From: Minisyncoccota bacterium
GTDB lineage: Bacteria > Patescibacteriota > Minisyncoccia > Phycocordibacterales > WO2-35-19
Assembly: GCA_041664625.1 (NCBI GenBank)
Contig: JBAYKK010000004.1
Location: forward strand, 2,343-66,342
Length of the DNA stretch: 64,000 nt
Direction: 5' to 3'
The translations under genes and the position numbers were made by a program. Of this stretch, positions 6,567 to 31,300 are shown piece by piece (the stretch's first letter is position 1; the number at the start of each line of letters is the position of its first letter). The notes beneath the pieces were generated by a model. That model made no database searches. It saw nothing but the letters and a program-made list of their open reading frames with translations, and was not told where the DNA came from.

Positions 6567-7286
6567 ATGATAATTAACTCAATCCTAAAACAAAAATCAA
6601 GGGCTCTCAGGAAAAAAGGTTTTAGTTATGGAGAAATAGCGTCCAAAATAAAAATTTCAAAAAGCACAGTAAAATATTGGTGTACTGATATAATTCTTAA
6701 TCAAAAAGACCAAAAAAGACTTTACACTAAACAAATAAAGGCACTTTCAGGTGGGCCAAGAAGTAGCCACAATCGAAGACAAAAAGAAATAGAAAAAATT
6801 ACTAAAAATTCCGAAAAGGAAATATCCTTACCCATCAATTTAGATACATACAAACTTTTTGGTGCTGCCCTTTACTGGGCAGAAGGAAATAAGATCAGTG
6901 ATTTTACAATTACTAATTCCGATCCATTATTAATACAATTTATGTGTCAATGGTTTTGTAAAATATTTAATGTCACACCTAATGATCTAAAAGCTCATCT
7001 TAATATATATCCACAACAAAACGATTTAGAAATAAAAAAATTTTGGTCAAATATAACAGGAATACCATTAAATAGATTTGGGAAAACTTTTATCAAACCA
7101 GTGAGTAAAAATTACAAAAAAAATAATCTTTATTATGGAACAATTAAAGTCAGGGTTAGCAAAGGTACAGATTTTAGACATCGTGTATTTAGTTGGATTA
7201 ATGCAATATTAAAAAATAATAAAATTAATGTTGGAATTACTGAAAGAAAATGGTATAAATTAAAGGGTGACTATATGCGCCCATAG
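6567..7286 (+). CDS. HTH-containing protein with LAGLIDADG-like motif (possible homing-endonuclease-like)
   Basis: 239 aa; N-terminal resolvase-type HTH 'GFSYGEIASKIKISKSTVKYW'; 'LFGAALYWAEGNK' resembles LAGLIDADG; stop overlaps tRNA-Lys 5' end. Confidence 0.3.
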   Translation: MIINSILKQKSRALRKKGFSYGEIASKIKISKSTVKYWCTDIILNQKDQKRLYTKQIKALSGGPRSSHNRRQKEIEKITKNSEKEISLPINLDTYKLFGAALYWAEGNKISDFTITNSDPLLIQFMCQWFCKIFNVTPNDLKAHLNIYPQQNDLEIKKFWSNITGIPLNRFGKTFIKPVSKNYKKNNLYYGTIKVRVSKGTDFRHRVFSWINAILKNNKINVGITERKWYKLKGDYMRP

Positions 7287-7349
7287 CTCAGTCGGTAGAG
7301 CAGTCGCCTCTTAAGCGAACGGTCCTTGGTTCGAATCCAAGTGGGCGCA
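7277..7349 (+). tRNA. tRNA-Lys (CTT)
   Basis: Acceptor GCGCCCA/TGGGCGC; D-arm GCTC..GAGC; anticodon loop CTCTTAA; T-arm CTTGG-TTCGAAT-CCAAG. Confidence 0.8.
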
Positions 7350-7452
7350 CAAACCGACAACAGGAAGGTTTGTGCGAGTCGGAGCACGACGGTGCGAGCC
7401 GGGGTCGCGGAATTTTTTAGCAAAAAATTATCTGTGACCACTCGTAAAGTAT

Positions 7453-7533
7453 GCCGGGGTGGTGAAATGGTATACACGCCAGTTTTAGGAACTGGTGCCG
7501 CAAGGCATGGAGGTTCAAGTCCTCTCCCCGGCA
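7453..7533 (+). tRNA. tRNA-Leu (TAG), type II
   Basis: Acceptor GCCGGGG/CCCCGGC; anticodon stem CCAGT/ACTGG loop TTTAGGA; variable arm TGCCGCAAGGCA; T-loop TTCAAGT. Confidence 0.8.
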
Positions 7534-7536
7534 CAA
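7515..7536 (+). repeat. attL-like: tRNA-Leu(TAG) 3' end, duplicated at 31241-31264
   Basis: 'tcaag-tcctctccccggcacaa' here vs 'tcaagattcctctccccggcacaa' at 31241-31264 (17-nt exact core + 5 nt). Confidence 0.55.
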
Positions 7537-7595: not shown

Positions 7596-7625
7596 GACGG
7601 GTTCAGGAATGGAACCTTGTTTTTT
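7596..7625 (+). terminator. Intrinsic terminator downstream of tRNA-Leu
   Basis: gggttc-aggaatg-gaacc hairpin followed by TTGTTTTTT. Confidence 0.55.
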
Positions 7626-7663
7626 ATGATTGACTTTTCATTTAACTGGCTCATAATGCATTC

Positions 7664-8260
7664 ATGAATGAATATGGTTTTCAAACTCAGCCCAAGGAAA
7701 AACACAATGTTTTTGTGAGTTTTCATAATAAAGATCAATATTATAGAGATCAATTTGATACTCTGTTCGGGCATCTATTCAATAGCAGATCTGTTGACGT
7801 AGGAGATATAGACCCCGAGAATGAAGACGAGTATATAAAAAAACTAATCCAAGAGAAGCACATAGAACCCTCAAGTGTCGTCTTTGCTTTGTATGGCAAA
7901 GAAACTCACCAACGCAAGCATGTTGATTGGGAAGTTTCTGCGGCTCTAAATAAAAAAGTGGGAGGCCATAAAGGTCTCGTAATTATGTTGATTCCAGGTT
8001 TCCCCATTGCTCCGTATAATGCGTTTAACCAATATGACGAAAGTGTAATATTCCCATATCTACACCCTCGCACTGCTGCAAATCTTAAAAGTGGTTATGC
8101 TGATCTTTACTATTGGCCAGGCCTCTTTACAAATTTTCCCGGAGTTCAAACATTCCCAATGGAAGATATTATCAAGAAAGCTTTCCTCAAGAGAGATAGC
8201 CACGAGCATTTGATTGATAATGGCGATATCCAATATAAAAGAAATCTATCATGGAACTAG
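7664..8260 (+). CDS. TIR-like domain protein (ThsB/DUF1863-type)
   Basis: 198 aa; 'NVFVSFHNKDQ' N-terminal TIR strand motif, 'SSVVFALYGKETHQRKHVDWEVSAAL' matches ThsB-type TIR core (cf. ThsB 'VFFSFHYQD', 'VTCVLIGSQTFNRRWVRYEI'). Confidence 0.6.
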   Translation: MNEYGFQTQPKEKHNVFVSFHNKDQYYRDQFDTLFGHLFNSRSVDVGDIDPENEDEYIKKLIQEKHIEPSSVVFALYGKETHQRKHVDWEVSAALNKKVGGHKGLVIMLIPGFPIAPYNAFNQYDESVIFPYLHPRTAANLKSGYADLYYWPGLFTNFPGVQTFPMEDIIKKAFLKRDSHEHLIDNGDIQYKRNLSWN

Positions 8261-8943
8261 CGAGTACAACTCTAATTAATTTATTTTCCGTATCTCTAAA
8301 TAAGTATCATTTACTATTTGATGTGAACCCTTGGTTAGTAGTAGGGGTGGTTTTATTAGCGCTACTTTTTATATTTGTTCGATGGCGTTTCGGGAAAATG
8401 CGTGGCCCTAATTTTGAAATTGATGCAGCTGAGATGGGAATCGGCCCTGGTAAAATTTCCTTCAAGCCAAATCTCAAAGATCAGGAAATCGCCTACAAAA
8501 TCTGGGTTGAGTTGAGTACAAGAAAGATTGGCCTTGATATTGATCTAAAACATGATGTCATTGCTGAAGTCTACGATTCATGGCACAGCTTCTTCTTGAT
8601 AACTCGAGAATTGATAAAAGATATTCCAGTAAATAAGGTGAAGAATAAAAGCACAAGAGAGATTATTGCTCTGTCTATTAATGTGCTTAACAAGGGTCTC
8701 CGCCCTCACCTCACAACTTGGCAGGCACGCTTCAGGCATTGGTATGAAAGACAGATTGAAAAGAAAGAGGATAGTGATATCGATCCGCAATTTATTCAAG
8801 CAAAGTATCCGCAATTTGAAGAGTTAAAAACTGATTTATTAGAGGTAAACAAGAGGCTTATTGCTTATAGAAAAAAGATGCATGAACTTGTCCTTGGTAA
8901 ATCAAAAGATGGAGAGGAGTTGTCAGAAAAAATTGTCTCCTAA
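8251..8943 (+). CDS. Membrane-anchored protein of unknown fold, translationally coupled to the TIR gene
   Basis: 230 aa; start overlaps TIR stop by 10 nt; one N-terminal TM helix (PWLVVGVVLLALLFIFV), ~180-aa soluble C-terminal domain with no family assignable by eye. Confidence 0.45.
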   Translation: MELASTTLINLFSVSLNKYHLLFDVNPWLVVGVVLLALLFIFVRWRFGKMRGPNFEIDAAEMGIGPGKISFKPNLKDQEIAYKIWVELSTRKIGLDIDLKHDVIAEVYDSWHSFFLITRELIKDIPVNKVKNKSTREIIALSINVLNKGLRPHLTTWQARFRHWYERQIEKKEDSDIDPQFIQAKYPQFEELKTDLLEVNKRLIAYRKKMHELVLGKSKDGEELSEKIVS

Positions 8944-10259
8944 ATTATCTTTACCTCCCTCCCACTCACTTGAATCCTGCTCTTGAGGCAATCCAGTAGC
9001 TCTCTTTTCTCCCACATAGTACCCTCTTGGAGAAGATACTTGGCATAGTTACGAATATCTATATCGACTACCTTTATTTTCTCCACTTTTTGTCCAAGAA
9101 GACTGGATTGGAATTTTTTATATCGCCCTACTTCAACTTTAATCTTTTCCTTCATTCCAATCTCGTCCAGATCAATTTTGTCCATTAGTTTGGAGAATTG
9201 CTGAATTAAATCTTTCTCTTCTATATATTTCGCCTTGCAGTGCTTATTCTTGGATCTGGAGCATCCATAGTATATGTATTTGTGAACATTGCCATTTTGC
9301 TGATGCTTATATTTTTCGCAAGCGGTTATGCCAGAACCGCACAAGGAGCAAGTCATGAGTTTGGTAAAAGCGTACTCTTTACCGTAATCTTTCATCACAT
9401 GCTCCGAAATATTTTCCTGGGTTTTGTCGAAAAGCTCTTTGGTGATAATTGGCTCATGCTTGCCTTGATACCATTTACCGCTTCCTGCCGGATATTCAAA
9501 TGTACCGTAGTAGAAGTGGCAGCGAAGTGTTAAGTATATGTTACCGAGAGCCAAAAATTTGTTGTTTTTAGTTTTAAACTTGATCTCATCTTTTAGCCAT
9601 TTATGCACTCGTCTGCCAGACCAGTTTTCATAAGCCACTTTTTCAAACATTTTCCTGACTATAGGTGCTCTGTAATGATCAACTTTAACCTGACATTTCT
9701 CATCTTTATTTTTGCTGTTTAGGTATCCAACTGGAGCCGGAGCTGGCCAAAGTCCCATCTCGCATCTAGCTCTCAAACCTCTTTTAACATTTTCAACCTT
9801 GTTGTCATTCTCGAGTTTGGCCTGACTTCCTAAAATCATGAGAAGAAATTTCTCGTTAGGATTGTTTGTAAATTTCTGACCTCCATTGGTTCGGATTTCT
9901 CTGAGTAATCCTTGATCCATTAGGTCCACGATTCTGCCAAGGTCTCCGGCATTTCTTGAAATCCTGTCCGGTGCCCAAGTTAAAATTCCGTCAAATTTTC
10001 CTTGTTTTATTTCCTCCACAATCTCGTTAAAAACAGGTCTCTGTCCCGCTTCTTTAGCAGAATGAGATTCTCTCTTTGTAACCACGATATCCAAACCATT
10101 TTCAGCTGCCATTCTTTCCATTTCTTTAACTTGGCTTTCTATGCTCAAAATTTGTTTATCCTCTTCCTCGGTGCTTTTACGAGAATATAAACAATATTTG
10201 ATCTTTGTTGGGACTACCACTTTCGTTTGAGTTCCCAAAGGACTTTGCGTTGTTTGCAT
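8940..10259 (-). CDS. Large serine recombinase (resolvase/invertase N-domain + recombinase + zinc ribbon)
   Basis: Catalytic 'YCLYSRKSTEEED...SIESQ' resolvase motif, recombinase domain, C-terminal Cys-rich ribbon; start at M10 supported by AAGGAA RBS (six-frame ORF extends to 10286). Confidence 0.85.
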   Translation of the reverse strand: MQTTQSPLGTQTKVVVPTKIKYCLYSRKSTEEEDKQILSIESQVKEMERMAAENGLDIVVTKRESHSAKEAGQRPVFNEIVEEIKQGKFDGILTWAPDRISRNAGDLGRIVDLMDQGLLREIRTNGGQKFTNNPNEKFLLMILGSQAKLENDNKVENVKRGLRARCEMGLWPAPAPVGYLNSKNKDEKCQVKVDHYRAPIVRKMFEKVAYENWSGRRVHKWLKDEIKFKTKNNKFLALGNIYLTLRCHFYYGTFEYPAGSGKWYQGKHEPIITKELFDKTQENISEHVMKDYGKEYAFTKLMTCSLCGSGITACEKYKHQQNGNVHKYIYYGCSRSKNKHCKAKYIEEKDLIQQFSKLMDKIDLDEIGMKEKIKVEVGRYKKFQSSLLGQKVEKIKVVDIDIRNYAKYLLQEGTMWEKRELLDCLKSRIQVSGREVKII

Positions 10260-10397
10260 ATTCCTTAAATTAGCTTGTATACCCAAGGAATGACGCTAAT
10301 CTCTATAAGAGTCTAGAGCATCTCGAGTTGGTAAGGTGTTTATACTCGCTCTTCAAAATGCTTTAAAATTGTGGCTTAAAGTGATAGTATTTCAATA

Positions 10398-13300
10398 ATG
10401 GAAATTGACCAAGATACATCTAAAAAAGTATTGGTTTTTATAAAAGAAAATCCTGGCAGTAAGGCACGGAAGATTTCATCTGTTCTTGATTTGGATAAAA
10501 AGGAAGTCAATAAATTACTCTATGGACCCCTCAAAGGCCAATGTAGACAAGATTCTGCGTACAACTGGTATCTAAAAGAAGATCTAAAAACAGAAGCGAT
10601 TACATCTATCAAACAAACGGTAAATACGCCTTTAGCTAGGCTATGCAATTATTATTCATCCTGTATTGCTGAGGATACCGGAGCAAAAGTTAGAGTGTTT
10701 GCTCAAAGTAAGTATGGGTTGGATTACAAGGAACTGGAAACAATTCCATCTTCTGAAGATACAAGCGAAATTTTTGAGTCATCAGAAGTACAAAATTTTT
10801 TAAATGAATCCCGAAAAGATAAATCCCAAATGTTATATTTTGGATATCCAGTATTAATGTCCCATGCACGTTCTAGCAAATCAGATTGGGAAGGATATTT
10901 TGTCAGTCCAATATTTCTATTTCCGATAAAAGTTGAAAACGACGGAGTAAATCTGGATCTAAATTTTCCGACTATAAATCGAGAAGTCTTGGAGCGATAT
11001 ACAGATGCAAAAGGCGAGGAGTTGATGAAAGAACTTGTTACCCTAGAAGAGGAACTCGGTATTTCAGGAGAAGGAGAACAACCTGAACTAGATGAGTTGA
11101 TTCAACGACTAAAGGTTTTACGTCCTGAATGGCAATGGGTTGAAGATCCTGATCCATACAACCTCGTGAAAGACCCTCCATTACGGGAATGTACTTCGGA
11201 AGGAATTTTTAATCGTGCAGTTGTAGTTAAAGTTCAGGAAGCTCCAAATAATTTTACGCAAGGTCTAGAATACGAATTAAGTCAATTGGCAAGGTTGTCT
11301 GAAAATGACTACAAAGACACAGCGTTGGGTCAATGGATATATAGAAATATCGGAGACGCAGGCGAGAAAAATTTAAACTCTTTGCTTGAGGTGTTCCCTA
11401 TGAATCTAGAGCAACGCGAAGCTGTTCAGAATGCACTAGTAAATGATCTGACCATTATTACCGGACCACCAGGTACCGGAAAATCACAAGTAGTTACTAA
11501 CTTACTTATCAATGCCGCTTGGCAAAAAAAGCGAGTGTTATTTGCAAGTAAAAATAACAAAGCTGTTGATGTAGTTGAAAGTCGTGTGAATAATATCGGA
11601 ACACGTCCAATTCTTTTACGTCTTGGTGGCAAGGGTGATTATCAAGATCAATTAGTTTCCCATCTTTCAAACTTGCTTGCTACAACCGTGGATCAGCAAG
11701 ATGAGCGGGAATTTGCAGAACGAAAACAAGAATTTGAAGATGTGCATGCCGAGCTGTTAAATATTGACTCGCAAATTAATGATTTAGTAATTCTTAGGAA
11801 TAAAGTCGATGAATTAGATAGAGATATTAATGATGCCAGAAATGATCTATCAGAGGATATTTTTGCTCTTATAAAAAATAAAAGATTTTTAAGTGTTAAA
11901 CCTGAAATTGAAATTTTGCTTAATAAATTAGAGTATGCGCTAAAGCCCAAAATTTCGTTTTTTGAAAAAATTGGAGAATTTCTTTTTGGTAGCAAAATAA
12001 GTAACGATATTATTGCAAGAACTACAGAGTTACAAGGTACTCTATCTGAACTTGATATTAGTATTCCAACACAGCCATTAAATAAGTACTCGCAGCAAGT
12101 TTGGGTTGTATTTAAAGATGAGTTACAGCATCGCTGGAATCAAACAGAGCGAGTAAGAAAATATTTTTATTCTCTAGAAGAACTGCAAAAATCTGATTCG
12201 TTGGAGACATTAACTAAACAAAGACTGAATCTTTTAAATAGGATGTCCGATAAATCTTCAGTACTTTGGAAGTTGTGGCTCAAGTTGCAAATTGGGCGAT
12301 TGTCACACGATGACAGATCTCTCCTTAGCCAATATAGATCTACTTTGCAAATGGCCTCTGGCTCTAATCCTACACAAAGTGTCTGGAGAAATTACTATAG
12401 CCAATCACAAAAAATTTCTCATATTCTATCCACTTGGGCTGTAACGTCACTATCAGCAAAAGGTAGAATTCCGCTTAGTAAAAATATATTTGATCTGGTA
12501 GTTTTCGACGAATCAAGCCAGTGTGATATTGCTTCTGCACTCCCACTTCTATATAGGGCAAAGCAAGCTGTAGTTATTGGAGATCCTAAACAGCTGTCTC
12601 ATATTAGTTCAATCTCTAAAAAACAAGACGAGCGTCTTTTGGAAAAATATGGTTTATTAGATACCCATAGCGATTGGGCATATTCATATAATTCTCTATT
12701 TGATCTTGCGGCTGGTCTTTCGCGCGGTACTGGTATTATTGATTTACGAGATCACTATAGGTCTCATGCAGATATTATTAATTTTTCAAATCAATTCTTT
12801 TATAAAGGCCGCCTTAGAATCGCAACTCGATACGATTCACTTAAACGGCCAAAGGACGAAAATGCAGGTATTAGGTGGATAAATGTCGAAGGTCGTGCAG
12901 AAAAAGCACCACTGGGTAGTGGATCACAAAATAAACAAGAAGCTGAGGTGGTAGTTACAGAGCTACGAAGACTTTTTGAGCAAGGATATAAAGGAACTAT
13001 TGGTGTTGTTAGTCCATTTAGGGCACAAGCCAATTTGATACGTAAATTAATCAACGAGGATAGTGAACTCCTTGGATGGTTATCTACATGCGAATTTATA
13101 AGTGAGACTGTTCATAAATTCCAAGGGGATGAGCGAGATATCATTATATTTTCACCTGTCATTTCTAAAGGCATGCCTAATGGTTCAACGCTATTTCTAC
13201 AGAAAACGGGGAACCTGTTTAATGTGGCTATTACTCGCGCGCGAGCAATGTTAATCGTTATTGGCGACCACGAAGCCGTACTTCACTCTGATATTTTGTA

Positions 13301-13727
13301 CATGGAAAAGTTTGCCCAACACGTCAATGAAATTGGTAAACAAAAAGAATATAAAATAATACAAAGTACCAGTCTCGGTCCAGAGTATCCGACAGTTAAA
13401 AATCCAGAGTTAGTTTCAGATTGGGAACATATTTTTTATAAAGCTTTATACGATGCTGGGATATGTCCAATTCCTCAGTATCAGGAAGAAATGTATATTC
13501 TAGATTTTGCAATTTTTGACGGAGACAAAAAACTTAATATAGAAATAGACGGAGAACATTATCATAAAGATTGGACTGGAGAATTATGCTACAGAGATCA
13601 AATGAGAAACCAGAGAATGTATGAATTGGGTTGGGATGTGATGAGATTCTGGGTGTATGAAGTCAGGGATGATCTAGACGGTTGTATCAAAAAAATTAAT
13701 GATTGGATAAGTCCAAGTAATAAGTAA
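10398..13727 (+). CDS. Superfamily-1 (Upf1/DNA2-like, AAA_11/AAA_12) helicase fused to C-terminal DUF559 (Vsr-like) endonuclease; N-terminal winged-helix-like region
   Basis: 1109 aa; Walker A 'GPPGTGKS', 'VVFDESSQ', 'VHKFQGDERD', motif VI 'VAITRAR'; C-terminus 'LDFAIFDGDKKLNIEIDGEHYH...GWDVMRFW' = DUF559. Confidence 0.8.
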   Translation: MEIDQDTSKKVLVFIKENPGSKARKISSVLDLDKKEVNKLLYGPLKGQCRQDSAYNWYLKEDLKTEAITSIKQTVNTPLARLCNYYSSCIAEDTGAKVRVFAQSKYGLDYKELETIPSSEDTSEIFESSEVQNFLNESRKDKSQMLYFGYPVLMSHARSSKSDWEGYFVSPIFLFPIKVENDGVNLDLNFPTINREVLERYTDAKGEELMKELVTLEEELGISGEGEQPELDELIQRLKVLRPEWQWVEDPDPYNLVKDPPLRECTSEGIFNRAVVVKVQEAPNNFTQGLEYELSQLARLSENDYKDTALGQWIYRNIGDAGEKNLNSLLEVFPMNLEQREAVQNALVNDLTIITGPPGTGKSQVVTNLLINAAWQKKRVLFASKNNKAVDVVESRVNNIGTRPILLRLGGKGDYQDQLVSHLSNLLATTVDQQDEREFAERKQEFEDVHAELLNIDSQINDLVILRNKVDELDRDINDARNDLSEDIFALIKNKRFLSVKPEIEILLNKLEYALKPKISFFEKIGEFLFGSKISNDIIARTTELQGTLSELDISIPTQPLNKYSQQVWVVFKDELQHRWNQTERVRKYFYSLEELQKSDSLETLTKQRLNLLNRMSDKSSVLWKLWLKLQIGRLSHDDRSLLSQYRSTLQMASGSNPTQSVWRNYYSQSQKISHILSTWAVTSLSAKGRIPLSKNIFDLVVFDESSQCDIASALPLLYRAKQAVVIGDPKQLSHISSISKKQDERLLEKYGLLDTHSDWAYSYNSLFDLAAGLSRGTGIIDLRDHYRSHADIINFSNQFFYKGRLRIATRYDSLKRPKDENAGIRWINVEGRAEKAPLGSGSQNKQEAEVVVTELRRLFEQGYKGTIGVVSPFRAQANLIRKLINEDSELLGWLSTCEFISETVHKFQGDERDIIIFSPVISKGMPNGSTLFLQKTGNLFNVAITRARAMLIVIGDHEAVLHSDILYMEKFAQHVNEIGKQKEYKIIQSTSLGPEYPTVKNPELVSDWEHIFYKALYDAGICPIPQYQEEMYILDFAIFDGDKKLNIEIDGEHYHKDWTGELCYRDQMRNQRMYELGWDVMRFWVYEVRDDLDGCIKKINDWISPSNK

Positions 13728-13778: not shown

Positions 13779-14579
13779 ATGTTCATACCAAAAAAAATTC
13801 TTTGTGCTGTCGGCGGGGTTGTAGTGTTAGTCGCTGTTTTCTTAATTGGGGTCTCGTCTGGAAATAAAAGTGAAAATTTAATATCAGAACAAACTGCGAC
13901 AGTGGTAGATTCAGATACGGCTAATACCAGTATTACTCCCAAATCTGGTGAGTTGGTCAAAGTGGTCAGAGTAGTAGATGGCGATACCATTAATGTTGAA
14001 ATAAATGGCAAAGTAGAGCCGGTGCGATATATAGGTATTGATACTCCAGAGACAGTTGATCCACGCAAGCCGGTACAATGCTTCGGAGTTGAAGCGTCAA
14101 AGAAAAATAAAGAATTAGTGGATGGTAAAATGGTGAGATTGGAAACTGATATCACTGATCGCGATAAATACAATCGACTACTTCGTTATGTTTGGCTTGA
14201 TGACAAGCTAATAAATCAGGCGTTAGTAGAACAAGGTTACGCTAAGTCATACTCATACCCTCCAGATATTAAATACCAAGATAAATTTGTGGTAGCCGAA
14301 AAACAGGCCAGAGAAAATAAACTGGGTCTTTGGACCGCTTGTGCTTCAGAAACAACTACGACGACAGTTCCAACTCCAACACAAACATCTTCATCTACTT
14401 CCGATCCTTCCTGTACCATTAAGGGTAATATAAGTTCGTCAGGAGAGAAGATTTATCACATGCAAGGTTGTGGTTCGTATTCAAAAGCCACCATAGATGA
14501 AAGTCGTGGTGAAAAATGGTTTTGTACAGAAACAGAGGCCCAATCTGCAGGTTGGAGAAAAGCTTTAAATTGTAATTAA
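13779..14579 (+). CDS. Secreted/membrane-anchored thermonuclease (SNase-like) with Cys-containing C-terminal domain; paralog of 54154-54954
   Basis: 266 aa; N-terminal TM; SNase motifs 'VVDGDTINV', 'RYIGIDTPE', 'NRLLRYVWLD', 'KLGLW'; ~88% nt identity to second copy. Confidence 0.8.
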   Translation: MFIPKKILCAVGGVVVLVAVFLIGVSSGNKSENLISEQTATVVDSDTANTSITPKSGELVKVVRVVDGDTINVEINGKVEPVRYIGIDTPETVDPRKPVQCFGVEASKKNKELVDGKMVRLETDITDRDKYNRLLRYVWLDDKLINQALVEQGYAKSYSYPPDIKYQDKFVVAEKQARENKLGLWTACASETTTTTVPTPTQTSSSTSDPSCTIKGNISSSGEKIYHMQGCGSYSKATIDESRGEKWFCTETEAQSAGWRKALNCN

Positions 14580-25391: not shown

Positions 25392-26048
25392 ATGGAAAAT
25401 GAATTAAAGTCTTCCGAGGTTAAGACTAAAAATATAACCTTAGGTTCGATTATTGGTTGGATATTTGGAGTGGTAATCGGAATCACTGGAATAATTAATA
25501 TATTCAGTAATCCGCTTTCAGGTTTGTTATTTATATTAGCTACAGTCATAACTCTGCCTCCTGCAAATAAATATTTGAAGGAGAAGATGCACATCTCTCT
25601 TTCAAAAGGAGTAAAGATAGTTTTGGTACTGATACTTCTTGGGGTCGCTGGAAGTCAGGTTGGAGAAAAAGCCAAAACGGAAGCAGTTCAAACTGTCAGT
25701 CAGACAACGGAAAAAGTTGAGGAAGTGGCAGAGCTGCCAAAAATAACAGCAAAGCAGATAGTTGATGACTATAAAGCTAACGAGGTATCTGCTGATGCTA
25801 AGTACAAGGGCAAAGAATTTGAGATTTCTGGCGTAGTGGAAACTATTGGCAAAGATATTATGGATACTCCATATATAGCTCTTGAGAGTTACGAATACGC
25901 TATCATCGACAAAGTGCAGTGTATGTTCAGTAAAGGATCTGAAGCTGAATTGGCTGCAGTTTCCAAGGAGCAGAAGATAACTCTAAAAGGTGAGATATCC
26001 GGCAAGCTTGGAAATATTCTTGTGAAGAGGTGTGAGATAGTGGATTAA
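25392..26048 (+). CDS. Membrane protein of unknown function
   Basis: 218 aa; two N-terminal TM helices, Lys/Glu-rich linker, C-terminal ~100-aa domain. Confidence 0.4.
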   Translation: MENELKSSEVKTKNITLGSIIGWIFGVVIGITGIINIFSNPLSGLLFILATVITLPPANKYLKEKMHISLSKGVKIVLVLILLGVAGSQVGEKAKTEAVQTVSQTTEKVEEVAELPKITAKQIVDDYKANEVSADAKYKGKEFEISGVVETIGKDIMDTPYIALESYEYAIIDKVQCMFSKGSEAELAAVSKEQKITLKGEISGKLGNILVKRCEIVD

Positions 26049-27559
26049 TTCAAGTAATATATCCTTGGCACTACCGGCGGCGCTTCAATGACACTCAGAA
26101 CCATATTGGCAAAAGCATCGGCCAAGTCGTCGTGTTTTTCCACTCCAAAGTGAACGATCTGTTGGATCAACTGCTCCGCTCCTTCTTTTGGAAAAAGTAC
26201 TTTACCGCTTTTGATCATATTGGCTGTTAGCACCAAACGACTTCGCTTGTCTTGATTACCGGGTCGAGTCGTCATCACCTCTCTCACACCCTCGGTTTGC
26301 ATTTGTTGAGGCAGAGCTTTTTGATAGCCGACATCTTCAACAACAAACGTCGGTTCCATGCCACCATGCTCATAACTTTTATCAAACAATTTACACATTT
26401 CAACCGTCTCCGGAAAATTCATTCTTTTGTTTATAATCTTGGGCAGAATATATATCCTGTAATAGTCTTCAAGTTCATAGAGCATAGCAGGTACTATGGC
26501 TGTGTAATCAGCGGCATCGTTTTTTGAAATAGCAGGGTCAACACCAATGCGTACTTCCATGTGAGAAGAATATCCACTTCTGAATTTCATAGGTTTAGGA
26601 ATGGCATCATAGTACTGAATCCATTCCTTATGTATCGCCTGATCTTCCGCCGGAACGATATTTAAGAGATACTCTCTTTGCCACGCAAATTCATTAGCTG
26701 CTTTACTTTTTTCTTCATCAATTGTCGCCATGTCAGGATACTTACCCAACCAAAGTATCTCCCCATTTTGTATCAAAGGATACGACTTGAAGATTCCATT
26801 TATTTTCCCATTATCAATATCTTCTTTAAGACGCATGAGGAGAGAGTCTTCGTGCAAGAGGTTACCGATGATCACGAGTCTTGTGTTGCGATCTCCGGCA
26901 GGAATGACTTCACCAGTTAGCCACTGATACGTTTTATTCCTACCTTCTCTAGTCTTAGTAGAAGCAATATCTTCCAAGTCGTCGCCAATAATAAGGTCTG
27001 GTCGGTGCTGATCGTGACGTAGACCTCTGATACTTTGCTCAGAAGATACTGCCGTGATCCTGGCATTCAGTTTGGAGAAGACCAGAGATGATGAACCCCA
27101 CTCATTGTGTTCTTCTTGGAATGGTCCAAGGTCGTTTTTGAGAAGAGTGTTACTCTCCAATTCTCGACGCAAGTTCATCATATGCTGTTTAGCTTGAGCT
27201 TGGGTTTGGCACAAAATTAGCACGAACTTCTTCTGCTGTTCTCCAAGAATTGCCCAGACAGGATATGAGGTAGTAAAGATGGTCGACTTGGCCGAGCCTC
27301 TAAAGGCAACAACGAAAAGATTCTTCACGTCCTCTCTTTCACTCAAATGGAACAACTCTTTTTGGAATGGCGCTGTCGCATATTTTACGTAGTGAGCGAA
27401 GTAGAAGTGAAAGAAGAGGAAATGGCTATGTTTAGCTATTTCGCTTCTCACCTGTCTATCTGAGAACATTTTATCCGCAAGTTCTGGAGTGAGGCCGCTG
27501 TTAGGTTTGTAATTTGAACTATCATTATTTATTTTCTTCATGATTATTTTGATTAACAT
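26045..27559 (-). CDS. Phage terminase large subunit
   Basis: 504 aa; Walker-A-like 'FRGSAKST'; C-terminal nuclease motif 'IGVDPAISKNDAADYTAIV' and 'DDLADAF' typical of TerL RNaseH-like domain. Confidence 0.7.
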   Translation of the reverse strand: MLIKIIMKKINNDSSNYKPNSGLTPELADKMFSDRQVRSEIAKHSHFLFFHFYFAHYVKYATAPFQKELFHLSEREDVKNLFVVAFRGSAKSTIFTTSYPVWAILGEQQKKFVLILCQTQAQAKQHMMNLRRELESNTLLKNDLGPFQEEHNEWGSSSLVFSKLNARITAVSSEQSIRGLRHDQHRPDLIIGDDLEDIASTKTREGRNKTYQWLTGEVIPAGDRNTRLVIIGNLLHEDSLLMRLKEDIDNGKINGIFKSYPLIQNGEILWLGKYPDMATIDEEKSKAANEFAWQREYLLNIVPAEDQAIHKEWIQYYDAIPKPMKFRSGYSSHMEVRIGVDPAISKNDAADYTAIVPAMLYELEDYYRIYILPKIINKRMNFPETVEMCKLFDKSYEHGGMEPTFVVEDVGYQKALPQQMQTEGVREVMTTRPGNQDKRSRLVLTANMIKSGKVLFPKEGAEQLIQQIVHFGVEKHDDLADAFANMVLSVIEAPPVVPRIYYLN

Positions 27560-27995
27560 TATTAATTTCTTCTAATACTGCAGTCGGCTCCTCTTCTGGA
27601 GGAGATTCCTGTGGATTTTGCGGGGCAAGAGAAGCCAGACGAAGAGCTTCTCTCACTGTTGCTTCTTGCTCTGGAGTCAGAGCGTCTTCTTTATCAAGGT
27701 GAGCCGTAATATCAATGCGATTTTTATAAGTCGCATGATTGTTTCGAAGCCAGAACATAATTCCGGACATGTTGCCTTCCTTAATGGCAGAGATGAGCTG
27801 AGATTCAGCTAGATCATTTACCAGAAGCGAGCCGTCACGCAGAGCCTCATCCGCCTTGTCCACAAACTCCTTGTCCTCCTTTCGCCAGAAGTAATATGTG
27901 GATCGACCAATGCCTAGCTTTTGGCAAGCGGTTTCCACGATGGGAGTTTTCTTTAACTGCTCTAAAAGCAATTCTTTGTTTGCATTAGTTTTCAT
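27525..27995 (-). CDS. HTH protein, putative terminase small subunit
   Basis: 156 aa; HTH 'VETACQKLGIGRSTYYFWRK'; directly upstream of and overlapping TerL; acidic C-terminus. Confidence 0.45.
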   Translation of the reverse strand: MKTNANKELLLEQLKKTPIVETACQKLGIGRSTYYFWRKEDKEFVDKADEALRDGSLLVNDLAESQLISAIKEGNMSGIMFWLRNNHATYKNRIDITAHLDKEDALTPEQEATVREALRLASLAPQNPQESPPEEEPTAVLEEINNVNQNNHEENK

Positions 27996-28765
27996 ATCTT
28001 TTTGGATTTAAAACCTGTTAATTTTTCAAAGCGGTCAATGATTGTTTGGCAGTATTCAGAATCCAACTCGACCATAAAGCACCTTCTCTTCGTCTGTTCG
28101 CAAGCGATTAAATCGGTTCCTGAACCTCCAAAACCGGAATACACCAAGTCTCCAATATCGGTACTATTTAGAATTAGATGCCTCACGAGGCCAACCGGCT
28201 TCATAGTCGGATGCAGACTGCTTTTATTCGGCTTGGGGAAACAGAGTACCGATTTGTCCTTCGACTTCTTGAAGTCATGGGTGCCATACCAACCGAAAGC
28301 AATGAGTTCGTGCATTGGAAGATAATCTTTCCTGCCGATAACCGAGTGATTTTTGACCCAGATGAGGAGTTGAGAGAATGTGATTCCAGCTTCGGCCATA
28401 CCCTCCCTTAGAGCAAAAATCATTTTGTCCGAGTTGAAGATGTAGAAGCTATTTTTTCTTTCGAGATATGGCTTCACCGCTTCTATCCAGTCGTGAGTGA
28501 ATCTCCTATACTCGGCATCGCTCTGGATGTGGTCATTGACGATCACTTTATTTTTCAAAAGTGTTTTGAAATTCTGTTTGCTCTCCGCGACTGCTACGCC
28601 ATATGGCACATCGGTAATGACCGCTTTAATTTTCTCTTTGCCGATAAGTTTCTTTACCAATTCTTTGTCTCTTGCATCACCGCATGCAAGAAAGTGGGAT
28701 CCGAGTTGGAAAATATCGTCAACTTTAATTGAGCTTTTTGGCTTTGTTGCCGCTGATTTTTTCAT
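27992..28765 (-). CDS. DNA methyltransferase (N4/N6, PF01555-like)
   Basis: 257 aa; motif IV-like 'VITDVPYG'; AdoMet motif 'VYSGFGGSGTDLIACE'. Confidence 0.75.
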   Translation of the reverse strand: MKKSAATKPKSSIKVDDIFQLGSHFLACGDARDKELVKKLIGKEKIKAVITDVPYGVAVAESKQNFKTLLKNKVIVNDHIQSDAEYRRFTHDWIEAVKPYLERKNSFYIFNSDKMIFALREGMAEAGITFSQLLIWVKNHSVIGRKDYLPMHELIAFGWYGTHDFKKSKDKSVLCFPKPNKSSLHPTMKPVGLVRHLILNSTDIGDLVYSGFGGSGTDLIACEQTKRRCFMVELDSEYCQTIIDRFEKLTGFKSKKI

Positions 28766-29996
28766 ATCGATTGATTATTACTTGAGTAAATACTGGTTCT
28801 ACTTCTGCAAGGAAAGCTTGACGCTTCAATCCTTCGCAGGCGACCATAAGACTTCCTGATCCAGCGCAGAGATCCAAAATTACGTCTCCAACTTTGCTAC
28901 ACCTTCGGAAGGACTTCTCATACAAACTCGGTGGCTTCATGGTCGGATGTTCGTACTGATTTCCAGGCAATCTTTTGACCAACCATATTTGGAGCATGTC
29001 CAAAACATCGTCTATCAGACGATTACCGCTACCGATTTCTCGATTCATCACTTCGTTCAGATTTTTTACATTCTCAGAAAGGAATGGCTTGCCTTTGGTG
29101 CCGTACATACACAGCTCGACCGTTCGGTTAAAAGCCACCTGAGGAGTGGGGTTGTGCGATCCTTTAATCCACATGCAGAGCCTTTTGAAATTCACTCCTG
29201 ATTCTTTGAAGATGGTCTGGAAATTCCCAACATATTTTTCATCGAGCCAAGTGAAGACATGACAATTGTCCTTGCTAACCGATAGAGCGTTTAGGAGAAT
29301 GCTTTTAACAAAATGTTCGTATTCTGCCTCGGATTTTTTATCATTAGTCTTACCACCATAATTCTGCCTGCCTCCAAGCCCAGCCGAATAGTCGACCCCT
29401 ATGTTGTAAGGAAAATCTATATTTATAAGATCCACCTTTTCTTTACCAAGAAGCTTCTCGATATTTTTTGATTCAGTACTGTCTCCACAAAGAAGTCGGT
29501 GATGTCCAAGCTGAAAAAGATCCCCAGATTTTATAGAGGTCTTTTTTGCTTTTTCTATCTCCTCCTCAACATCTAGCTCGTCATCCTCGATTGAGAGATT
29601 CTCGTCCCAGATGTGGCTCAAATCTTCGTTTTCAAAACCGACATCAAGCAACATGTTTATATCGAAGGATTTAAGGAGATCAAAATCCCAAGCCCCCTGA
29701 TTGGCATTCATGCGGAGCAGAAGCTCACGCTCTTTTTCCTCACTTGGGATATTAAGGTATATGACAGGCACGGTCTCGTATTCAAGCTCTTTCGCCATCT
29801 CTAAGCGAAAGTGGCCAGAGATCAGGCAACCCTTTCTTTTTGGAGATGAATTGACCAGAAGTGGCTCCGTTAAACCGTGCCGTTTTATACTTTCCTTTAG
29901 ATCACTTCTGGCCTTTTCGCTCCAGTATCGCGGATTATTTGGAGATGGTATAATGCAACTAACAGACACATATTCTACTTTCAATTTTTGATTCAT
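28725..29996 (-). CDS. ParB-like nuclease domain fused to DNA methyltransferase (N4/N6)
   Basis: 423 aa; N-terminal ParB/Srx 'IIPSPNNPRYWSEKARSDLKESIKRHGLTEPLLV'; 'NIDFPYNIG' motif IV; 'ILDLCAGSGSLMVACE' AdoMet site. Confidence 0.8.
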   Translation of the reverse strand: MNQKLKVEYVSVSCIIPSPNNPRYWSEKARSDLKESIKRHGLTEPLLVNSSPKRKGCLISGHFRLEMAKELEYETVPVIYLNIPSEEKERELLLRMNANQGAWDFDLLKSFDINMLLDVGFENEDLSHIWDENLSIEDDELDVEEEIEKAKKTSIKSGDLFQLGHHRLLCGDSTESKNIEKLLGKEKVDLINIDFPYNIGVDYSAGLGGRQNYGGKTNDKKSEAEYEHFVKSILLNALSVSKDNCHVFTWLDEKYVGNFQTIFKESGVNFKRLCMWIKGSHNPTPQVAFNRTVELCMYGTKGKPFLSENVKNLNEVMNREIGSGNRLIDDVLDMLQIWLVKRLPGNQYEHPTMKPPSLYEKSFRRCSKVGDVILDLCAGSGSLMVACEGLKRQAFLAEVEPVFTQVIINRYEKISGNKAKKLN

Positions 29997-31240: not shown

Positions 31241-31264
31241 TCAAGATTCCTCTCCCCGGCACAA
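31241..31264 (+). repeat. attR-like partial copy of tRNA-Leu(TAG) 3' end
   Basis: 'tcaagattcctctccccggcacaa' matches 7515-7536; GC-rich 17-mer in AT-rich DNA, direct orientation, 23.7 kb from the tRNA. Confidence 0.55.
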
Positions 31265-31300
31265 AATTGTTTTTTAAAATCAAATGTGATATAATACATT

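Follow-up and report, generated by a model that had tools for sequence, protein, structure and literature searches.

A probable type VI Thoeris gene pair with a membrane-anchored ThsG effector in a tRNA-integrated island of a Patescibacterium

The thsB–thsG locus

The window analysed here is the whole of a 64,000-nucleotide (nt) stretch from a Minisyncoccota bacterium (Patescibacteriota; GenBank assembly GCA_041664625.1, contig JBAYKK010000004.1, positions 2,343 to 66,342 of the forward strand), and all coordinates are window positions unless preceded by the number of another locus (L001 and so on). It contains two overlapping genes, thsB and thsG, encoding a TIR protein and a membrane-anchored partner. 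The pair is probably a type VI Thoeris anti-phage system of the kind defined by Yirmiya et al. (bioRxiv 10.64898/2025.12.03.692087).

The thsB gene (7664–8260, plus strand) starts with ATG and encodes a ThsB-type TIR protein of 198 amino acids (aa). The thsG gene (8251–8943, plus strand), also starting with ATG, encodes the putative membrane-anchored effector of 230 aa. The genes overlap by 10 nt on the plus strand (8251–8260, ATGGAACTAG), with the thsB stop codon TAG at 8258–8260. This overlap had been pointed out in the first-pass annotation of this DNA; it is compatible with translational coupling. Small overlaps of the TIR gene and its partner are also present in the open reading frame (ORF) calls of several related loci, and in the verified type VI system (locus L083, see below) the overlap is 1 nt. 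Both ORFs of the window pair are intact, and all family-invariant residues are present, as is the candidate catalytic glutamate. Both genes can be taken as real; for thsG this follows from the existence of 2526 homologues at E ≤ 1e-3 (clusters at 90% identity) and from the 748 clusters at 50% identity yielded by an exhaustive profile search.

The pair is situated between a tRNA cluster and a large serine recombinase, as had been noted at first pass. A tRNA-Lys gene (7277–7350) lies just upstream, followed by a tRNA-Leu gene with the anticodon TAG (7453–7534, plus strand; found by ARAGORN, Rfam tRNA score 57.8 bits), at whose 3' end the island considered below is integrated. A terminator-like hairpin (7599–7617) comes after the tRNA and ahead of a candidate promoter of the thsB–thsG operon (7630–7657, plus strand; TTGACT, a 16-nt spacer and CATAAT). 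The promoter candidate is weak: in the consensus scan it has 10 matches out of 12, and the number of promoter-like sites in the region equals the expectation from shuffled sequences. The recombinase gene (8940–10286, minus strand; probably starting from the ATG at 10259) runs convergently towards thsG, and the two share 4 nt at their ends. Its product matches the Pfam families Resolvase, Recombinase and Zn_ribbon_recom, and no other recombinase was identified in the island.

The ThsB and ThsG proteins

The first gene had been described as encoding a TIR protein of the ThsB/DUF1863 type, and the profile searches bear this out. Its product scores well above the Pfam ThsB_TIR threshold (PF08937, E = 2.9e-14, 53.7 bits against the cut-off of 21.2) and is matched by the PADLOC ThsB models (9.4e-10). 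The TIR core comprises residues 17–109, and a C-terminal extension occupies residues 110–198. Residues W89 and E90 are 100% conserved, that is, in all 55 partner-adjacent TIRs, and Glu90, within the motif HVDWE, is the candidate TIR catalytic glutamate. The extension is, by our own reasoning, a candidate sensor of the phage trigger. A PDC-M50 identity was considered and rejected: ThsB has a weak match to PDC-M50B (4e-7), but ThsG matches no PDC-M50 model.

ThsG consists of about 25 N-terminal residues, one transmembrane (TM) helix (residues 26–48, approximately), a basic stretch RWRFGKMR, and a helical domain at 75–215. The single strongly hydrophobic segment is at residues 25–43 (Kyte–Doolittle maximum 2.6), and the AlphaFold2 model, built for the monomer with a 23-sequence alignment as input, features a helix at 27–48 and a four-helix bundle at 75–215, with the mean predicted local distance difference test (pLDDT) score of 78 and most of the bundle above 85. 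The soluble part, of roughly 170 aa, is all-helical. The N-terminal TM helix followed by a soluble domain, as proposed from the first inspection, is thus reproduced. Because the basic stretch directly follows the TM helix, the C-terminal domain is probably cytoplasmic.

No match to ThsG was found in Pfam, PADLOC and NCBIfam, and only an insignificant one in PHROGs; hence ThsG has no recognizable SIR2, SLOG or Macro domain, which, together with the all-alpha fold, agrees with the first-pass annotation. Pfam was also without a match for 69 members of the family. The fold formed by the TM helix and the helical bundle has no specific neighbour in the PDB, consistent with the statement of Yirmiya et al. 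that ThsG resembles no domain of known function. Two motifs, WVELSTRKIG and GLRPHLTxWQARFRxWY, are nearly invariant in the family, and seven residues, R91, D102, S110, R119, N147, R151 and T155, are invariant across 46 divergent members. The invariant residues R91, K92, R119, R151 and H153 are, in our view, candidates for a nucleotide pocket.

Assignment to type VI Thoeris

Thoeris types V to XI were defined in the December 2025 preprint of Yirmiya et al., where the type VI effector ThsG is labelled 'DUF6650', may or may not have N-terminal TM helices, and is said to resemble no known domain. The authors report 255 type VI (ThsG) operons. One type VI system, from Ga0209396, was cloned as two genes and protected E. 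coli from phage. Their Table S1 places the TIR Ga0209396_100023224 in a verified 'DUF6650 and TM' system. This TIR is visibly similar to that of the window, and a search with its sequence recovered an identical protein (P0121) together with its contig. The latter, our locus L083, is the JGI contig Ga0209396_1000232 named in Table S2 (Gammaproteobacteria metagenome scaffold 3300025731). The verified ThsG, Ga0209396_100023225 (211 aa), was assigned by numbering, as the gene immediately downstream of the TIR on this contig (L083:5561–6193).

The window ThsG is 48% identical to Ga0209396_100023225 over 213 aligned positions, that is, at full length (E = 2e-68), and the window ThsB is 45% identical to Ga0209396_100023224 (E = 2e-55). 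The two systems have two genes each, in the order TIR, then effector, with a gene overlap; an N-terminal TM helix and the motifs WVELSTRKIG and LRPHLTxWQA are common to both ThsG proteins. They differ in context and source: the verified contig, from the Gammaproteobacteria, has a transposase and a tyrosine integrase nearby, whereas the window pair, which is from the Patescibacteria, adjoins a large serine recombinase in a tRNA-integrated island.

The similarity extends to more distant effectors. The profile of the TM-ThsG family aligns with the soluble ThsG of a verified Bacillus system (170 aa, L089:3598–4107) with the hhalign probability of 98.7% (E = 2.5e-16, 153 columns). The alignment covers residues 58–215 of the window ThsG, and the Bacillus protein has arginines at the positions of R91, R119 and R151. 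A Priestia plasmid protein matches the ThsG family profile with the probability of 97% and adjoins a TIR about 51% identical to the type VI TIR of E. coli ACN001.

We assign a probability of about 0.87 to the pair being a type VI Thoeris anti-phage system composed of thsB (TIR) and thsG in its TM-anchored form. The first-pass annotation, while correctly suggesting a Thoeris-type pair of a TIR protein and an effector (both components have homologues in a verified type VI system), had regarded the partner as an unrecognized effector and the pair as a candidate new Thoeris variant. A membrane effector of no described family would be in line with the empty domain searches, but the libraries lacking a match predate the December 2025 description or have no model of sufficient sensitivity, and the homology to a published, verified ThsG is direct and covers the full length of the protein. 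Novelty of the effector thus seems hardly credible.

The ThsG family and its linkage to TIR genes

The best 120 of the 2526 ThsG homologues are 56–100% identical to the window protein, and the few of them with a source name come from the Patescibacteria or unclassified bacteria. In a scan of one genome per GTDB species, 262 loci were found, and the linkage counts below cover the 80 loci kept. The latter come from the Patescibacteria, Alpha- and Gammaproteobacteria, Chlorobi, WOR-3, Fervidobacterium (Thermotogae), Melainabacteria and an Altiarchaeales archaeon, at 45–70% identity. The distribution is patchy and crosses phyla, with every appearance of horizontal transfer.

The TIR genes were identified among the ORFs called in the 80 loci, first by a search with the window TIR and next by a profile of the matches. 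A TIR gene is present in the same locus as the ThsG homologue in 74 of the 80 cases, so that the partner is not a membrane protein found apart from TIR genes, and in 65 of the 80 the distance is within 300 nt. On the same strand as the ThsG homologue, the TIR gene is upstream in 35 loci and downstream in 22; in six loci, the two genes are divergent. As the linkage holds in several gene orders, TIR and ThsG seem to form a functional pair rather than a remnant of inherited synteny.

In 32 of the 80 loci (within the range L007–L078; Sphingomonads, Pseudomonas, Rhodobacterales and others), the ThsG homologue lies inside a conserved multi-gene cluster, for example, L012:5899–8968, L028:4052–7870, L041 and L060. 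In nearly all of these 32 loci, the TIR gene is beside a co-oriented Nmad2 gene; other companions are MazG with MazG_C (24 loci), a UDG-like protein (16), a 5-hydroxymethyldeoxyuridine (5-hmdU) DNA kinase, HMUDK_hel (nine), and a dCTP-deaminase-like protein (six). The ThsG–TIR–Nmad2–MazG arrangement does not appear in the preprint of Yirmiya et al. Such a cluster could represent a variant made up of several genes, or Thoeris fused with a system of nucleotide modification or nucleotide depletion.

Two plasmid loci deserve a separate description. On a plasmid of Aureispira sp. CCB-E (L082, NZ_CP133672.1), three consecutive TIR genes are followed by a ThsG homologue 40% identical to that of the window. 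The E. coli plasmid p13TMH22-1 (L087, NZ_CP019257.1:1–1702) carries a decayed type VI Thoeris: its TIR gene, whose product is 98% identical to the verified ThsB of E. coli ACN001, is split by a frameshift, and only a C-terminal fragment of the ThsG-like gene is retained (motif LTKHQNNYRRWHKY), with stop codons ahead of the fragment. With the TIR frameshifted and the ThsG remnant truncated, this locus was rejected as an E. coli type VI reference.

Signal and mechanism

The mechanism proposed for the window pair is modelled on that of its homologues. Phage infection would activate ThsB, which would convert NAD+ into 2' cyclic ADP-ribose (2'cADPR) by cyclising the NAD+-derived ADP-ribose (ADPR). 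ThsG is predicted to assemble into a hexameric ring, and the signal would bind in the positively charged pockets where its protomers meet. The membrane-anchored ThsG would then compromise the membrane and arrest growth, leaving the phage cycle incomplete (abortive infection). For type VI systems, Yirmiya et al. report that the TIR makes 2'cADPR on infection, that cells carrying the system stop growing when supplied with 2'cADPR but not with 3'cADPR or cADPR, and that ThsG is predicted by AlphaFold3 to form a hexameric tube with positively charged inter-protomer pockets. A June 2026 preprint (bioRxiv 10.64898/2026.06.15.732069) reuses the type VI system of the Gammaproteobacteria scaffold and describes its ThsG as 'membrane-spanning' and activated by 2'cADPR.

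Several points weigh against the assignment and the mechanism attached to it. The identity to the verified proteins is only 45–48%, and the pair is known here from sequence, function having been shown only for homologues. The oligomeric ring of ThsG and its charged pockets are published AlphaFold3 predictions, not solved structures. TIRs of the same sequence cluster (2741407742) pair with different effectors, according to Table S1 of Yirmiya et al., and type VIII systems, with a cytidine monophosphate (CMP) hydrolase as the effector, use canonical cADPR (10.64898/2025.12.03.692087). In Bacillus toyonensis (L085), TIR_2/LD_cluster2 proteins are the neighbours of a TIR with 71% identity to the verified type VI ThsB. 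The host of the window pair is uncultivated and belongs to the Patescibacteria, whose phages are poorly known. Finally, PF20355 (DUF6650) was not matched by hmmscan in the window ThsG (E ≤ 1), nor in 23 and 46 family members, nor in the two verified ThsG proteins (E ≤ 10).

The last observation is no argument against type VI membership, because the verified ThsG proteins fail the same test; PF20355 is also unmatched in the ThsG homologues on the Calothrix, Aureispira and Priestia plasmids. The DUF6650 label of the authors probably comes from a more sensitive method. The missing match explains why thsG is 'hypothetical' in standard annotation and why no recognizable effector was seen at first pass.

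The arrangement in B. toyonensis rules out assigning the Thoeris type from TIR similarity alone. The multi-TIR arrays of Aureispira (L082) and B. toyonensis (L085) indicate that the same TIR clade serves several effector types. Since the TIR clusters are promiscuous for both effector and signal, the identity of the signal rests mainly on effector homology, and 2'cADPR as the presumed signal of the window pair is the main uncertainty. An alternative is that the pair has the type VI architecture but uses some other ADPR derivative (3'cADPR, canonical cADPR or another), the Patescibacterial clade being functionally distinct from the verified systems. Such a divergence would fit the pairing of same-cluster TIRs with other effector classes, CMP hydrolase among them, the use of canonical cADPR by type VIII and the neighbours of the B. 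toyonensis TIR. Moreover, one type V variant is not triggered by the signal that triggers another (10.64898/2025.12.03.692087). However, signal specificity should reside in the effector pocket, and the window effector has homologues in two ThsG proteins that originate from distant bacteria and respond exclusively to 2'cADPR. The invariant arginines are common even to the Bacillus ThsG. We thus consider a different signal unlikely, and retain a type VI system responding to 2'cADPR as the working description of the pair.

Comparison with other Thoeris systems

The soluble form of type VI, verified with 2'cADPR for Bacillus metagenome scaffolds, has an effector domain homologous to the window ThsG, but the identity is only about 22%, and the Bacillus effector (170 aa) has no TM helix. 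Further, the Bacillus TIR belongs to a different clade (TIR_2/ThsB) and did not emerge among the close relatives of the window TIR.

Type II Thoeris (ThsB and TM-Macro; His-ADPR) follows the same logic, as a TIR signal generator is combined with a membrane-spanning effector that kills or arrests the cell. The predicted sensor domain in the window is different, an all-helical bundle without a Macro match in Pfam, and PADLOC has no model for ThsG. The signals differ too: type II uses His-ADPR, whereas the homologues of the window ThsG respond to another molecule. With type I (ThsB and ThsA with SIR2 and SLOG; 3'cADPR), the pair shares the ThsB-type TIR (PF08937). However, the window effector lacks SIR2 and SLOG and, by analogy with its homologues, would act at the membrane without NAD+ depletion. 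As no SIR2, SLOG or Macro domain is detectable, the pair is, judging by domain content, neither type I nor type II.

The integrated island

The first-pass annotation had placed the pair in a putative integrative element. The island is delimited by 17-bp direct repeats and by its absence from five related genomes. Its body (7537–31247; 23.7 kb) is integrated at the tRNA-Leu gene, with thsB–thsG being the first, attachment site (att)-proximal cargo. The left, attL-like repeat (7520–7536; 17 bp, TCCTCTCCCCGGCACAA), found by blastn-short, overlaps the 3' end of tRNA-Leu; the right, attR-like repeat (31248–31264) is its exact 17-bp copy, 49 nt upstream of the RNase P RNA gene. Beyond these two copies, TCCTCTCCCCGGCACAA does not recur in the window, and 100 shuffles gave no match.

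Eleven metagenome contigs encode relatives of the window IF2, and five of them (L092, L094, L095, L098 and L099; IF2 67–77% identical) extend past tRNA-Leu(TAG). In these five, the upstream synteny (provisional NusA, IF2, RbfA, tRNAs) is kept as far as the sequence reaches, and after tRNA-Leu(TAG) they run directly into the equivalent of window position 31283 onwards. No homologues of thsB, thsG, the recombinase, the helicase, the SNase protein or the YceG-like gene were found in these five contigs.

The first gene after the right repeat encodes RNase P RNA (bacterial class A, RF00010; 31313–31724, plus strand; E = 1e-13, full model positions 1–367). Its score, 48 bits against the gathering score of 100, is that of a divergent Patescibacterial rnpB below the Rfam threshold. 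The orientation of this gene relative to tRNA-Leu is reversed in four of the five related contigs. On the other side of the island, an ORF of 239 aa (6567–7286, plus strand) is located between two tRNA pairs, with its last 10 nt overlapping the start of tRNA-Lys. It has only a weak N-terminal helix-turn-helix signal, and a 54% identical homologue is found at the same position in L098.

The gene order in the island is thsB, thsG, the serine recombinase, a helicase-nuclease, the SNase protein, the YceG-like gene, secreted or surface proteins, the large and small terminase subunits, and two DNA methyltransferases. The helicase-nuclease (10398–13727, plus strand; 1109 aa) is composed of an N-terminal ZorC-like 'EH signature', a superfamily 1 helicase (AAA_11/AAA_12) and a C-terminal DUF559/MTES_1575 endonuclease, and has PADLOC matches to MkoC (1e-70), PDC-S37 (3e-58) and Hhe (2e-28). 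As a defence candidate consisting of a single gene, it is probably the second one in the island, and it is followed by the SNase-domain protein (13779–14579). Phage-derived genes are found near the right end (26045–29996, minus strand): the terminase large subunit (phrog_38, 1e-74), the terminase small subunit, and the two DNA methyltransferases, one of which has a ParB-like N-terminus.

No capsid or tail genes were recognized in the island, which could be what is left of a prophage, or a satellite-like element of the Patescibacterium. Compared to prophages, it has only part of the phage gene set. It resembles other tRNA-integrated defence islands and prophages in the direct repeat of the tRNA 3' end, the recombinase located close to one of its ends, and the defence operon placed between this recombinase and att. 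It differs from them in having a large serine recombinase instead of the usual tyrosine integrase, and in its Patescibacterial host. Two LOOT RNA motifs (Rfam RF03000; 16989–17107 and 25220–25346, plus strand; 78.8 and 50.1 bits, both above the gathering score) are inside the island, upstream of genes for large secreted proteins.

A 23-nt inverted repeat, 83% complementary, links the anticodon region of tRNA-Leu (7469–7491) with the region upstream of the recombinase (10261–10283). It brackets the three-gene module, and its right arm is just upstream of the probable ATG of the recombinase. We consider it probably fortuitous, since by a rough estimate about 0.3 such pairs are expected in 3 kb, and none was found in L004 or L022.

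Recurrence of the module in the Patescibacteria

The block of thsB, thsG and the serine recombinase is present in four other genomes, L004 (labelled Adlerbacteria), L001 (Magasanikbacteria), and L003 and L022 (both Saccharibacteria), with the recombinase homologues beside the pair at E-values from 1e-150 to 1e-179. The conserved tblastx block covers window positions 7661–10226. In L004, L005 and L022, the pair is directly downstream of a different tRNA gene; repeats of the tRNA 3' end were not found within these shorter loci. The recurrence suggests that thsB–thsG–recombinase is a mobile module. A tentative extension, which we regard as possible but doubtful, is that Patescibacterial type VI Thoeris spreads as att-proximal cargo of large-serine-recombinase elements, with tRNA/att–thsB–thsG–recombinase as the core module.

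The position of the pair, directly adjoining the recombinase and the att site of the island, and the recurrence of the three-gene module also bear on a different explanation. The pair could be mainly an addiction or stabilization module of the island, with a toxin-like membrane protein and its controller, or else a decaying passenger, and in either case would provide no working phage defence in its host. The decayed copy on plasmid p13TMH22-1 would be in line with the latter. However, in the window both ORFs are intact and have kept the family-invariant residues and the putative catalytic glutamate. Two-gene homologues defend against phage when cloned without a recombinase (10.64898/2025.12.03.692087). 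Moreover, a homologue of the window recombinase is near the pair in only eight of the 80 loci. Hence such a role is quite improbable, and a type VI defence system remains the preferred description of the pair.

Implications

The initial inference of a Thoeris-like defence pair was well founded, although a description of the system has appeared in the meantime. The locus provides no new mechanism; it is a new copy of a known, tested system in an unusual host. The Patescibacteria are not mentioned in the type VI preprint (10.64898/2025.12.03.692087), and no link between the two was found in the literature searched. What is new is the Patescibacteria as a host phylum of type VI Thoeris, the precise island context with a serine recombinase, making the pair a clean example of cargo in a delimited, tRNA-integrated island, and an indication that the ThsG family exceeds the 255 operons reported.

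The locus may be annotated as type VI Thoeris (thsB/thsG), although the Pfam, PADLOC 2.0 and NCBIfam models miss the effector. As PF20355 misses even the verified ThsG proteins, automatic annotation needs a dedicated ThsG hidden Markov model (HMM). The family collected here (2526 clusters at 90% identity, 748 at 50%, and genomes of 262 GTDB species) could feed a sensitive HMM of this kind for defence-annotation tools.

For the biology of the host, the pair would extend TIR signalling of the 2'cADPR type to the Patescibacteria (the candidate phyla radiation, CPR), with their tiny genomes and poorly known phages. If it does spread as att-proximal cargo of large-serine-recombinase elements, ThsB–ThsG would be common in ultra-small episymbiotic bacteria, as an abortive-infection system passed on by horizontal transfer. 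The size and variety of the ThsG family would then considerably exceed what the reported operons indicate, and the family would include a proteobacterial form that is situated beside a nucleotide-modification cluster of TIR, Nmad2, MazG and UDG or HMUDK.

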